A stretch of DNA of 43,102 nt from Escherichia phage AV104, in the sequence record OR352935.1. One strand, 5' to 3'. The notes below the pieces were generated by a model, which was not told where the DNA came from, did not search any database, and was given only the letters and a program-made list of their open reading frames with translations. Below are positions 4,681 through 40,809 of this stretch, piece by piece. Both the position numbers and the translations under genes were made by a program. Positions within the stretch are counted from its first letter, which is position 1. Every line of letters starts with the position of its first letter.

Positions 4681-4710
4681 TGAATAGTACCCTATTATAT
4701 CGGGGCATGT
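4681..4710 (-). promoter_or_regulatory. promoter/operator motif (TGAATAGTACCCTATTATA) for gene 4327-4641
   Basis: minus-strand reading gives TATAATAGGGTACTATTCA, the same motif found in front of the early genes. Confidence 0.4.
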
Positions 4711-13735: not shown

Positions 13736-13768
13736 TGAATAGTACCCTATTATATTGGGGTGTGCAAG
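13736..13768 (-). promoter_or_regulatory. promoter of reverse island (TTGCAC-17-TACTAT containing TATAATAGGG motif)
   Basis: minus-strand reads CTTGCACACCCCAATATAATAGGGTACTATTCA, almost identical to the promoters at 36190 and 37632. Confidence 0.45.
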
Positions 13769-30294: not shown

Positions 30295-30349
30295 CGTGAT
30301 TTCTCGCTTTTAAGTTTACTCCGGGAGCTGCCCGGCCAGTGATTAGAAC

Positions 30350-30368
30350 TATAATAGCTAACTATTCA
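30350..30368. promoter_or_regulatory. promoter/operator motif TATAATAGCTAACTATTCA
   Basis: same quasi-palindromic motif as at the early promoters; lies upstream of gene 29662-30294 (minus). Confidence 0.35.
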
Positions 30369-32616: not shown

Positions 32617-32648
32617 TATTTATTCTCCTCTCGTTTGGTATGGGTAAC

Positions 32649-32667
32649 TATAATAGCTAACTATTCA
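32649..32667. promoter_or_regulatory. promoter/operator motif TATAATAGCTAACTATTCA in divergent control region
   Basis: quasi-palindrome; on the minus strand followed by leader AAACGAGAGGAG and the ATG of gene 32616. Confidence 0.45.
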
Positions 32668-32694
32668 TTATGTCAATGGGCTTTTCTAAAATAA

Positions 32695-32716
32695 TTAATA
32701 TGGTACTATTCACATA
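32695..32716 (+). promoter_or_regulatory. promoter-like motif (TTAATATGGTACTATTCA) upstream of HTH gene
   Basis: degenerate copy of the early motif 25 nt upstream of the RBS of gene 32741. Confidence 0.35.
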
Positions 32717-35855: not shown

Positions 35856-35880
35856 TAAGATACAAAAGATGCTACTGGTA

Positions 35881-35909
35881 TTGACTTTTACTTAAAAATA
35901 TGCTAAGCT
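35881..35909 (+). promoter_or_regulatory. sigma70-like promoter (TTGACT-17 bp-TAAGCT with extended TG), copy 2
   Basis: near-identical to 4779-4807. Confidence 0.5.
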
Positions 35910-35916
35910 TCACTGA

Positions 35917-36026
35917 GCTTGTGAGATATCGCAAGCGACCGCGGAGCGGCAGGGAACGCAACGCGTGCCATTAGGCACTTGAGTGTAGTTCCGCTGGCGC
36001 TTTCGGAAGGGCCAAAGTCTATTGTT
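35917..36026 (+). ncRNA. candidate structured RNA element, copy 2
   Basis: paralogue of 4815-4925 with compensatory hairpin (GUGCC-AUUA-GGCAC here versus GGGAC-GUAA-GUCCU in copy 1); followed by a large hairpin at 36091-36150. Confidence 0.3.
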
Positions 36027-36090
36027 AATCCCGCCTAAATACCCAAGTCACTGATAATTAAAAGTTTCTATAGTTGCCGTAAGCAAGGTG

Positions 36091-36150
36091 GAGAGTACTT
36101 CACTCCGCTGGGGTGGGCTAACGCCCACCCACTGCGTTGCGTACTCTTTT
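36091..36150 (+). terminator. complex hairpin / possible terminator
   Basis: GGGTGGGC-TAAC-GCCCACCC inner stem, outer GAGAGTAC/GTACTCTT pairing, then TTTT. Confidence 0.35.
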
Positions 36151-36189
36151 AAGAAACGAAAGAATCACAACGGCAACGTAACTTTTCTC

Positions 36190-36218
36190 TTGCACACCCC
36201 AACATAATAGGATACTAT
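36190..36218 (+). promoter_or_regulatory. early promoter (TTGCAC-17-TACTAT, spacer contains CATAATAGG)
   Basis: conserved with 37632-37660 and minus-strand 13736-13768; followed by conserved leader TTATCGAAACGAGA..GAGGAG. Confidence 0.45.
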
Positions 36219-36252
36219 TCACTTATCGAAACGAGACAGAGGAGTGAGGGTT

Positions 36253-37631: not shown

Positions 37632-37660
37632 TTGCACACACAGATATAATAGACTACTAT
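37632..37660 (+). promoter_or_regulatory. early promoter (TTGCAC-17-TACTAT, spacer contains TATAATAG)
   Basis: same architecture and leader (GTTATCGAAACGAGAGGAG) as 36190-36243. Confidence 0.45.
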
Positions 37661-37691
37661 TCAGTTATCGAAACGAGAGGAGAGAGAGAAG

Positions 37692-38535: not shown

Positions 38536-38909
38536 TTATGGTACAGAGATATAACGCTTCATATAACGACTATTATGAAAACGATGCCGGTGAGTTTGTA
38601 AGTTATGAAGACTATGTGAAACTCGAAGCAGATTTTAAGGCGTACAAAGCCTCTGCTTACATGGTTGCAGAGCAGTATGCGGGGGTAATTAAGGAACTCG
38701 AAGCCGAGTTACAGAAATACAAAGACCAGTTCCCGGATTACGTCGAGTGCGCGAACTGTAGGTCAGTTACACATGTGGAAGGAGTTGAAGACGCTATGGG
38801 GCAATCCGGTTGCCGTAAAGAAGACGCCCAAGAATGTGAACACGTGTGGAATAGGTACATTGTACACCCTCACAGAAAGATATGTTTAGTATGCGGGGTG
38901 AAGGAATGA
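38532..38909 (+). CDS. zinc-ribbon protein, paralogue B
   Basis: CANCRSV...SGCRKEDAQECEHVWNRYIVHPHRKICLVCGVKE. Confidence 0.5.
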   Translation: MIMVQRYNASYNDYYENDAGEFVSYEDYVKLEADFKAYKASAYMVAEQYAGVIKELEAELQKYKDQFPDYVECANCRSVTHVEGVEDAMGQSGCRKEDAQECEHVWNRYIVHPHRKICLVCGVKE

Positions 38910-39199
38910 CACTTGCAACTGACATCCTGAAACGAAGCGGCATTGCGCCGCTGTCACCGAGAGCTAAAACACAGATATACAAGCGCCGAGGTAACGCGCT
39001 GTACCCCGAGATTCAGGCCAGACGCAAAGCTGTCCGCGCCTGTGGATTCCAGAACGGGAAGGCCGTGAATCTCGGTGAGTTTAAAACACAGGAACGCGCA
39101 GCTATCGCTAATCGGCTATTTAATTACTGGAAATCGCTGGGGTACGATGATATTCCGACGAAACCGCAGAGACGGCAATACATCTGGAGACACAAATAA
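38906..39199 (+). CDS. AP2-like DNA-binding protein (putative)
   Basis: NGKAVNLGEFKTQERAAIANRLFNYW resembles an AP2-type strand-helix core; ATGA coupling. Confidence 0.35.
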   Translation: MTLATDILKRSGIAPLSPRAKTQIYKRRGNALYPEIQARRKAVRACGFQNGKAVNLGEFKTQERAAIANRLFNYWKSLGYDDIPTKPQRRQYIWRHK

Positions 39200-39229
39200 A
39201 CCGTTATTAGGATAATTCCTACCCGTGGT

Positions 39230-39269
39230 ATCCTCCAGTTACTGCATACTTAATACGCACCTGGAGGAT
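39230..39269 (+). promoter_or_regulatory. hairpin sequestering the holin Shine-Dalgarno
   Basis: perfect 9-bp stem ATCCTCCAG / CTGGAGGAT with 22-nt loop; the 3' arm contains the GGAGGA SD located 6 nt before the TTG start at 39275. Confidence 0.45.
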
Positions 39270-39274
39270 TCATC

Positions 39275-39583
39275 TTGGATAAATTTACTGAAACAGTGAC
39301 GGGCTGGCTTCTCGCTGCCGCACTCGCCGGAGGGGTCATCGGACTACGACAACATAAGTCCGTTATTTCTGGCCCTATCGACGGCTTCTGCTTCATCGCT
39401 ACTGGTTTCGCCTGCGCCGTATTTGGCGCCCCTCTTGCAGCTCAATGGTTCGGTATCACGGGCGACCGTGAAATCGCTGGCCTGGGCTTTATCATCGCTA
39501 TTCTCTGGATGCCTATTTATTCCCGTCTCTCCGGTATTGTTGCCGGAGAATACATCTCACGTCGAGGAGGCCCGGATGAATGA
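39275..39583 (+). CDS. holin-like membrane protein
   Basis: 102 aa with about three hydrophobic helices; TTG start; directly upstream of a second membrane protein and the endolysin. Confidence 0.55.
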   Translation: MDKFTETVTGWLLAAALAGGVIGLRQHKSVISGPIDGFCFIATGFACAVFGAPLAAQWFGITGDREIAGLGFIIAILWMPIYSRLSGIVAGEYISRRGGPDE

Positions 39584-39848
39584 GTTATTCTGGTTCGCCG
39601 TAATGTTGGCGATGGGCGCTTCGTCCCTGTTCAACGTGTATAATGAATGTGTTGACGACGGGCTATTCGGTCGGGTGCTCTATATCCTGACTGCTATCGT
39701 CTGCGCTGCCGGATGCATCCACCTGTTACATGGCAGCATGTCGCCAACGCTGCCTGAGACATTAATCACATTAGTCGCGCTGCGCCAGATTCGTCAGGCG
39801 TGGCTGTCATACGGAGGGCATAAGCGTGTCTCGAAACATTTCAGATAA
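39576..39848 (+). CDS. second lysis-cassette membrane protein (holin/antiholin-like)
   Basis: 90 aa, two hydrophobic helices; ATG overlaps the holin stop (ATGAATGA). Confidence 0.45.
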   Translation: MNELFWFAVMLAMGASSLFNVYNECVDDGLFGRVLYILTAIVCAAGCIHLLHGSMSPTLPETLITLVALRQIRQAWLSYGGHKRVSKHFR

Positions 39849-40311
39849 TGGATTGCATTTTACCGCCGCGTTCGAGGGATTCCGTGGAACTGCGTATCGT
39901 GCTACGCCGAACGAGAAGTACCTTACCATAGGCTACGGCCACTACGGGCCGGACGTAACACCAGGTAAGACCATCACACCAGGACAGGGCTTGCTGTTAC
40001 TGAATCGCGATATGGCTAAGGCTGTAGCTGCGGTTGATGCAGCGGCACACCATTCATTAACACAGGCGCAGTTCGATGCAGTGTGTGACCTGGTGTATAA
40101 CGCGGGCGCCGGCGTGATTGCGTCTACTACGGGCACGGGTAAGGCTCTGCGTTACGGTGATATTCCGACGCTGCGGGCTAAGCTGGCGCTGTTCATCAAC
40201 CAGAACGGCAAACCGTTACTCGGCCTGCGTCGCCGTACCGCAGGCCGCCTGGCGCTGTTCGATGGTAAGCCGTGGCAAGAGGCTGAGGCTATCGGGAGGG
40301 CTGTTAAATGA
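39826..40311 (+). CDS. endolysin (phage lysozyme, GH24-like)
   Basis: 161 aa; N-terminal FEGFRGTAYRATPNEKYLTIGYGHY matches the lysozyme catalytic region pattern. Confidence 0.75.
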   Translation: MSRNISDNGLHFTAAFEGFRGTAYRATPNEKYLTIGYGHYGPDVTPGKTITPGQGLLLLNRDMAKAVAAVDAAAHHSLTQAQFDAVCDLVYNAGAGVIASTTGTGKALRYGDIPTLRAKLALFINQNGKPLLGLRRRTAGRLALFDGKPWQEAEAIGRAVK

Positions 40312-40438
40312 TGGACGAATATGAAGGCGTTTAGTAAACTTATCCCTACGCTGTTTGTGCTTGCATACTAAGCCCCGGTAAACCCGAAGCAGCAGCCCAA
40401 GCGGTGGAGACTGCGTAGGGTTCAGAGGCTTATGGCCG

Positions 40439-40470
40439 AAACCCGGACCGCGAATCCGGGTTTTATTTTA
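40439..40470 (+). terminator. rho-independent terminator
   Basis: ACCCGGA-CCGCGAA-TCCGGGT followed by TTTTATTTT. Confidence 0.6.
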
Positions 40471-40542
40471 CCAATTGACACCTAAGACTAATCCGACGAT
40501 ACTTAAATCACCTCCTGTTCCATCCCTCTGCTCTCCAGTTTT

Positions 40543-40576
40543 ATCCCGGCCCTGACCCAGCCGGGATTTTTTTTTA
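40543..40576 (+). terminator. rho-independent terminator
   Basis: ATCCCGGC-loop-GCCGGGAT followed by TTTTTTTTT. Confidence 0.65.
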
Positions 40577-40597
40577 TCTGTTTTCCACAATGACTAG

Positions 40598-40626
40598 TTG
40601 ACTATTACCATCGACCCTATTATATT
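40598..40626 (+). promoter_or_regulatory. sigma70-like promoter TTGACT-17-TATATT
   Basis: canonical spacing; spacer contains CCCTATTATA motif; followed by leader ...CGACAACGAGAACGGAG and ATG at 40660. Confidence 0.5.
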
Positions 40627-40659
40627 TACTCCATCGACAACGAGAACGGAGTATAGAAG

Positions 40660-40809
40660 ATGAAAATCACAGATATCGAAGCATTCAAAGACGCACAACT
40701 GATGGCACGTATCGCCGTTAGTAACCTTAGTAGCAGTATCCCCGCTGACGCGTTCTGGTTCGCAGCGATGCAGACCCTGAAAGCAGCTTATGCAGGAGAG
40801 AAGAAATGA
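40660..40809 (+). CDS. small hypothetical protein (49 aa)
   Basis: first ORF after promoter 40598; ends GEKK with GGAGAGAAGAAATGA junction. Confidence 0.35.
   Translation: MKITDIEAFKDAQLMARIAVSNLSSSIPADAFWFAAMQTLKAAYAGEKK

Follow-up and report, generated by a model that had tools for sequence, protein, structure and literature searches.

The window analysed here, that is, the whole stretch of 43,102 nucleotides from Escherichia phage AV104 (OR352935.1), carries a holin / holin / endolysin cassette whose first gene is preceded by a hairpin that includes its Shine-Dalgarno (SD) sequence. The features of the locus are the following:

39230..39238, + strand: 5' arm of the hairpin, ATCCTCCAG, anti-SD-like (from sequence, folding and covariation)
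39239..39260, + strand: loop of the hairpin, 22 nt, including the predicted transcription start site (TSS) at about A39241, 7 nt past the -10-like hexamer (from -10 geometry)
39261..39269, + strand: 3' arm of the hairpin, CTGGAGGAT, bearing the SD GGAGGA at 39263-39268 (from sequence and folding)
39275..39583, + strand: first lysis gene, TTG start, 102 aa, holin family (phrog_2359 'holin', E = 2.9e-29)
39576..39848, + strand: second holin-like gene, encoding 90 aa with two hydrophobic segments and preceded by its own SD GGAGG at 39565-39569 (phrog_2508 'holin', E = 6.7e-33)
39826..40311, + strand: endolysin (phage lysozyme), GTG start (PF00959, 93.6 bits; phrog_7, phrog_33703)
40438..40470, + strand: intrinsic terminator closing the lysis operon, GAAACCCGGA..TCCGGGTTTTATTTT (terminator scan; the relative Snoke has an annotated terminator at the corresponding site)

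The gene starting at 39275 had been described in an earlier note as the first lysis gene, and the family matches agree with that description, since they place it at the head of the cassette. Its product has three hydrophobic segments by hydropathy (residues 7-25, 35-56 and 65-85) and ends in RRGGPDE; the Snoke counterpart is annotated as 'holin/antiholin class I', and the PF00959 endolysin lies 250 nt downstream. A small protein with three predicted transmembrane domains, a charged C-terminus and an endolysin as neighbour points to a class I-like holin cassette. The ATG of the second holin-like gene overlaps the stop codon of the first (ATGAATGA), an arrangement that suggests translational coupling between the two.

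The window represents the genome, or nearly the whole genome, of a Kagunavirus (Guernseyvirinae). It shares 95% identity with Kagunavirus PDP21P8 over 38800-40400, and 100% with Kagunavirus LM08P1 over 39150-39650. Some 3.5 kb of small, co-oriented genes precede the cassette, and no terminator was predicted on the + strand between 35700 and 39300. In Snoke, 14 small genes in the same orientation are found before the cassette. Start codons of Snoke include TTG in 6 of 81 genes and GTG in 4 of 81; its holin starts with TTG, and its endolysin and o-spanin start with GTG. Non-ATG starts of this phage are concentrated in lysis genes (3/5, versus 7/76 among the other genes).

Additional observations concern the flanks of the cassette. 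In many Kagunaviruses, Snoke among them (L041, 704-1141), a gene for an HslV-like peptidase is inserted directly upstream of the conserved block, with its TAA stop inside GGATAATTCC; this gene is absent from the window. Past the endolysin, two terminator-promoter pairs are arranged in tandem (40438-40630): the terminator at 40438-40470 is followed by TTGACA-17-GATACT at 40475, and a second terminator at 40545-40578 is followed by TTGACT-17-TATATT at 40598. Sub-threshold Rfam matches to small RNAs (40519-40574) coincide with the second terminator hairpin. Farther upstream, in 35860-36250, a promoter-like TTGACT at about 35881 is followed by around 330 nt without an obvious gene. Within this gap lie a GC-rich hairpin, GGGGTGGGCTAACGCCCACCC (36111-36132), and a single copy of the repeat TGAATAGTAnCCTATTATAT described below; a long leader and a small RNA are both possible interpretations of the region.

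The inverted repeat reported in the earlier note is found at 39230-39238 and 39261-39269, with nine perfect pairs around the 22-nt loop. The statement that the only SD of the holin gene lies in the 3' arm is also correct: GGAGGA is separated by a 6-nt spacer from the TTG at 39275-39277, and no second purine-rich SD was found upstream of this codon. The TTG is the first possible start, as the stretch from an in-frame TAA (39251-39253) to 39275 is free of ATG, GTG and TTG codons. The N-terminus of the holin, MDKF, aligns with MDKL in the ATG-initiated homologues of Dhillonvirus; therefore, the TTG start is genuine. It is retained in 40 of 40 Kagunavirus loci from IMG/VR, and also in L109, a locus whose holin is 68% identical.

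Folding of the RNA from 39225 to 39280 yields a minimum free energy (MFE) of -16.8 kcal/mol (z = -2.6), equalled by 3 of 200 shuffled sequences, and the hairpin still forms within a context of 181 nt. A 9-bp inverted repeat is not, by itself, beyond chance: perfect repeats of this length with a loop of up to 40 nt have 13 seeds across the window, compared with 7.0 ± 3.3 in Markov-1 random sequence. The significance of this particular repeat comes instead from its position, its conservation and its covariation.

A scan of 38800-40700 against Rfam 15 (E <= 1) gave no match at the hairpin (39200-39280). A small hairpin located upstream, TAGGA..TCCTA (39208-39221), is broken by a G to A change in many relatives and was rejected as an RNA structure. 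On reasoning, an RNA thermometer is unlikely because a perfect, GC-rich stem of 9 bp at -16.8 kcal/mol is not expected to melt around 37 °C, and an RNase III site is unlikely because the stem is too short.

Conservation and covariation of the stem

Across the 40 Kagunavirus loci the stem is invariant, with the exception of an A to G change at 39237 in one of them (L039) that turns an A-U pair into G-U. In two diverged Kagunavirus loci (L025 and L029/LSPA1), changes in the loop lengthen the stem. In L109 (P0017; 68% identical) the stem is kept with the help of two G-U pairs, and the loop is unrelated and shorter.

Outside the genus, an SD-burying hairpin is found in Dhillonvirus (45-50% protein identity) and in a divergent Dhillonvirus-like contig (L091), in Jerseyvirus and three Jerseyvirus-like lineages (L104, L106 and L108), and in Guernseyvirinae of Serratia, Klebsiella and Enterobacter. 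Altogether, the MFE hairpin sequesters the SD in 31 of 31 unique upstream sequences, which represent nine lineages. The arms differ from one lineage to another and are nonetheless complementary: ATCCTCCAG/CTGGAGGAT, AGTCCCAGTGAG/CTTACTGGGACT, AATCTCCGAAGGT/ACTTTCGGAGATT, CTCCGTATGG/CCTATACGGAG, GCCTCGG/CTGAGGC, CCCCCGAAT/ATTCGGGGG and CCCCTG/CAGGGG. The search for homologues of the holin protein itself returned close relatives only, down to 68% identity.

Alignment of raw upstream sequences with MAFFT mis-registered the 3' arms, and N-padded input re-anchored the Dhillonvirus sequences on TGnTA. For this reason, pairs were counted in a colinear subset, and a script of our own was used for the complete set of lineages. 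In the colinear alignment (18 distinct sequences), the nine pairs of the window are paired in 94.4% of cells, compared with 81% after shuffling (0/500), and both sides have changed in 4 of the 9 pairs. The covariation score in these 18 sequences is 0.412, versus 0.166 in shuffled alignments and no more than 0.165 with slid partners. The custom layout, which includes 28 sequences from nine lineages, gave 88% paired cells versus 65% (0/1000) and double changes in 11 of 13 pairs; these figures must be read with the caution that a layout anchored on stems favours pairing counts, and that the lineages are few and related.

The existence of a hairpin that hides the SD of the first lysis gene is thus real, and the hairpin has been kept during evolution. 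The pattern of substitutions argues that the helix is maintained by selection.

A side observation was made in Salmonella Jerseyvirus VT223 (L093). Positions 1968-2189 of this locus contain a regulatory block of the Kagunavirus type followed by the first ~20 codons of a Kagunavirus holin, 95% identical to the window. The holin fragment is fused to unrelated sequence, forming a remnant ORF of 49 aa immediately 5' of the native hairpin and holin of VT223. The remnant resembles a recombination scar, and suggests that the block and the 5' end of the gene move together.

Promoter-like and terminator-like elements at the hairpin

The 5' arm of the hairpin overlaps a short conserved element. The features in this part of the locus are:

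39226..39234, + strand: TGgTATCCT, extended -10-like element (TG at 39226-39227, hexamer TATCCT at 39229-39234), overlapping the 5' arm; detected by conservation, with putative promoter activity
39204..39209, + strand: TTATTA, weak candidate -35 hexamer by its position relative to the -10-like hexamer; the spacer is 19 nt here and 18 nt in L109
39210..39221, + strand: GGATAATTCCTA, conserved motif in the presumed promoter spacer, nearly invariant in the 40 Kagunavirus loci

Within Kagunavirus, the TG, the TA and the final T of the element are conserved, and the N position is either G or C. The Dhillonvirus version of the element is TGaTATAGT, that of Jerseyvirus is TG(t/c)TAATCT, and L104-L108 carry TGaTAATCT or TGcTAACCT. 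In other words, the 5' border of the stem retains TG-n-TA-nnn-T, and the N position, the flanks and everything farther upstream vary. Three clades lack the TG and show a near-consensus TATACT with TTGCAG at 18 nt, and the counterpart of TTATTA in the Serratia, Klebsiella and Enterobacter relatives is found in the arrangement TTGCAG-18-TATACT. Promoters usually trade good hexamers against an extended -10 in this way. Motifs related to GGATAATTCCTA, namely GGATAAATCC and GATTAATCCTAA, are present upstream of the holin in Jerseyvirus and in the Serratia/Klebsiella/Enterobacter phages.

When one representative set was examined for architecture, either TGnTAnnnT or TTGCAG-18-TATACT was found to overlap or abut the 5' arm in 14 of 14 representatives. 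In all 14, the anti-SD part of the arm falls between the -10 and the predicted TSS, with a predicted leader of 24-34 nt. As judged from these comparisons, the element is conserved in the manner of an extended -10 sigma-70 promoter. Because it overlaps the 5' arm, the stem is probably absent from the cassette's own mRNA, and probably acts on read-through transcripts.

Several observations qualify the assignment. TATCCT matches the -10 consensus at 4 of 6 positions, the -35 is poor and the spacer has 19 nt; a consensus promoter scanner made no call at TGgTATCCT. Conservation of the CCT in the hexamer is partly explained also by pairing with the SD. The only call of the scanner nearby is GAGACA-18-GATAAT (39187-39216), whose transcripts would carry the entire hairpin. 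GATAAT (39211-39216) was rejected as the -10 of interest: the accompanying -35 lacks conservation, being replaced in the relatives with the HslV-like insert, and the hexamer is lost in L109. The one RNA-seq study of a Kagunavirus, K1B4 (PMC12645636), is too coarse to bear on this point; it lists neither TSSs nor per-gene values for the holin. Among the Kagunavirus genome papers accessible to us, promoters and terminators are in-silico predictions only, and the hairpin element is not mentioned.

A 20-nt near-palindrome, TGAATAGTAnCCTATTATAT, occurs in seven copies in the window, compared with 0.02 expected (4681-4700, 13736-13755, 30349-30368, 32648-32667, 32693-32712, 36202-36221 and 37644-37663). 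It matches the 'phage promoter' consensus obtained with PHIRE in Kagunavirus fBC-Eco01 (PMC9825357), and is probably a regulator-binding or promoter element. The PHIRE 20-mer was discarded as the promoter of the holin since a full copy is absent there; the block TTATTAGGATAATTCCTA upstream of the holin resembles half of the motif (11 of 18 positions).

In some relatives the homologous hairpin has an additional trait. The terminator scan calls it in Dhillonvirus HK578 (12 bp, 6-nt loop, T5), in Jerseyvirus (13 bp, with a T-run) and in Klebsiella S11a (10 bp), and in these terminator-like hairpins the U-tract is the spacer between SD and start codon. The hairpin of the window was not called by the scan because its loop has 22 nt and its tail is TTCATCTT. 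For the same reason, that is, the long loop and the interrupted U-tract, efficient termination is unlikely in the window. In L104-L108 the U-tract is absent, and SD occlusion and the -10-like element are retained. From this comparison, the universal feature is predicted SD occlusion together with a -10-like element, and termination appears to be lineage-specific.

Alternative readings of the hairpin

The reading that we favour, with a probability of roughly 0.55, is that the hairpin is a transcript-selective lock on the ribosome-binding site (RBS) of the holin gene, analogous to that of T4 gene e. Its most likely role is to silence the holin gene on early read-through RNA. The mechanism might operate as follows. 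Transcripts from upstream promoters would run on into the holin gene, as the ~3.5 kb of co-oriented genes contain no predicted terminator. In such long RNAs, 39230-39238 would pair with 39261-39269, the 30S subunit would be excluded and no premature holin would be made. A sigma-70-type promoter, whose extended -10 (39226-39234) and discriminator would encode the 5' arm of the hairpin, might in turn initiate transcription within the loop, at about A39241. The resulting mRNA would lack the 5' arm, leaving GGAGGA free for translation, and the weak TTG would then hold holin output low. In the Dhillonvirus, Jerseyvirus and Klebsiella phages, where the stem is longer, the loop short and a U-tract present, upstream transcripts would probably also be terminated. 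We infer both the size of the translational block and the effect on lysis timing.

The calculated costs of opening the RBS are in line with this reading. In the window, opening the region from SD to start takes 12.7 kcal/mol in a long transcript, compared with 6.4 in a transcript from 39241, and the short RNA is no more structured than its shuffles (z = +0.86). A gap of similar size between long and short RNA is found in 8 of 10 lineages; the hairpin of L109 is weak in the long context (3.4 kcal/mol). Three distant homologues without this architecture, Erwinia RF1 (whose upstream genes are divergent), Pantoea MED16 and Pectobacterium Wc4-1, show ordinary RBS opening energies of 2.5-5.1 kcal/mol. 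A separate observation concerns the second holin-like gene: in Snoke (41759) its RBS is also unusually structured (13.6 kcal/mol, rank 2 of 80), and in the window (39540-39583) the fold at this site is unremarkable (z = -1.5).

The earlier note had proposed a simpler view, namely that stem and TTG both throttle holin translation. Read as a constant throttle, this means that all holin mRNA would bear the full hairpin, and that stem and TTG together would fix a low initiation rate that tunes the lysis clock. Part of that proposal stands. The SD is locked in a stable stem (-16.8 kcal/mol) that is conserved and co-varies; in Snoke the holin RBS, with an opening energy of 12.8 kcal/mol, ranks third among 80 genes (median 5.4, sd 3.0); and a transcript from the scanner's GATAAT would contain the hairpin. 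Furthermore, initiation at the holin is weakened in every related lineage by one feature or another (TTG, GTG, a weak GGGA SD or an 11-nt spacer), which fits selection for low output. The part that does not stand is the constancy of the throttle. It leaves unexplained why TG-n-TA...T is conserved over the 5' arm across lineages with differing stems, why the anti-SD is always located past the -10 and before the predicted TSS, and why full terminators are found directly before the start codon in three lineages (Dhillonvirus, Jerseyvirus and Klebsiella phages). The promoter that it could draw upon is not maintained either, given the loss of GATAAT in L109 and the replacement of its -35 in relatives with the HslV-like insert, and for a gene that needs to be expressed, 12-18 kcal/mol is a very strong block. 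A constant throttle is therefore an unlikely explanation.

Much less probable is that the hairpin is a terminator or attenuator that stops transcription until a phage factor permits late read-through, in the manner of lambda Q at tR'. The hairpins of HK578, Jerseyvirus and Klebsiella S11a would suit this proposal, as they are called by the terminator scan. The hairpin of the window, however, is not, with its 22-nt loop and its TTCATCTT tail, and L104-L108 dispense with the U-tract and still preserve SD occlusion and the -10-like element. In addition, neither a Q-like gene nor a qut-like arrangement was identified, and the SD would still be closed on the read-through RNA.

A structure of the lambda S sdi type, in which the stem sets the ratio of two in-frame starts and holin and antiholin are made from one gene, is very improbable. 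In lambda S, the S105:S107 ratio is set by a stem-loop encompassing the RBS (PMC3369941). The window does have a stem-loop that includes the RBS, and an in-frame GTG exists at codon 8 (39296). Nevertheless, a second start within one to three codons is absent (the N-terminus reads M-D-K-F-T-E-T-V), and the GTG lacks an SD, is not conserved and would, if used, delete the conserved N-terminus. No matching second start is found in the Dhillonvirus and Jerseyvirus homologues, and a separate gene for a second holin or antiholin lies downstream.

Finally, a functionless inverted repeat that arose by chance is hardly credible: about seven perfect 9-bp repeats with a loop of up to 40 nt are indeed expected in the window, but this one sits exactly on the only SD and its pairing is kept by G-U pairs and compensatory changes in nine lineages.

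Significance and comparison with known systems

Synthesis of holin sets the time of lysis, and hence burst size and fitness. Phages of the genera Kagunavirus, Jerseyvirus and Dhillonvirus are widely isolated for therapy and biocontrol; to our knowledge, lysis control in these phages is unstudied. If the transcript-selective lock is correct, an element of ~50 nt would allow a lysis cassette placed behind early-type genes to avoid premature expression without a dedicated late regulator, and the principle of T4 gene e would extend to siphoviruses that depend on the host polymerase. The element would be compact enough for reuse as a synthetic insulator. It also gives annotators grounds for accepting TTG and GTG as the start codons of these holins.

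A broader proposal, to which we would give slightly less than an even chance, is that a dual-purpose element of ~50 nt guards the lysis cassette across Guernseyvirinae and Dhillonvirus. Its anti-SD arm would lie within the -10 and discriminator of a sigma-70 promoter, its 3' arm would contain the SD, and a U-tract would add a terminator in some lineages. Such an element would stop and/or silence upstream transcripts, and would launch an open, weakly translated holin mRNA. No description exists for these phages of a promoter, a terminator and an RBS lock that overlap in this way; the principle itself is well established in T4 and has a looser precedent in lambda S.

The closest parallel is found in T4. 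As summarized in PMC3014915, the T4 genes e, soc, 49 and I-TevI have early read-through transcripts that fold into an inhibitory helix; the late promoters, which lie in the region of its 5' strand, give rise to translatable transcripts. Gene e (McPheeters et al. 1986, cited therein) shares with our locus the presence of a lysis gene downstream of earlier units and an SD in a helix, predicted in our case, on read-through RNA; in T4 the helix prevents premature lysis, and the same purpose is proposed here. There are differences, however. The T4 late promoters (TATAAATA) depend on gp55, whereas the element found here resembles an extended -10 for the sigma-70 of the host; use of the promoters has been proven in T4 and is inferred from conservation in our case; and the regulated T4 gene encodes an endolysin instead of a holin. 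Also unlike T4 gene e, the hairpin of sister lineages resembles an intrinsic terminator.

In this latter respect, the hairpins of the Dhillonvirus, Jerseyvirus and Klebsiella relatives are akin to intrinsic terminators that double as RBS occluders, in that they combine a stem containing GC with a short loop and a U-tract. The hairpin of the window departs from that class by its 22-nt loop and interrupted U-tract.

The likeness to the lambda S sdi (Blasi and Young 1996, as cited in PMC3369941) is looser. In both cases a stem-loop directly upstream of the holin gene includes the RBS, and in lambda it affects lysis timing. The lambda structure partitions ribosomes between Met1 and Met3, thereby producing antiholin and holin, and such a dual start is absent here. 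The antiholin candidate of the window is instead a separate gene, and the stem is stronger than that of lambda and covers the whole SD.
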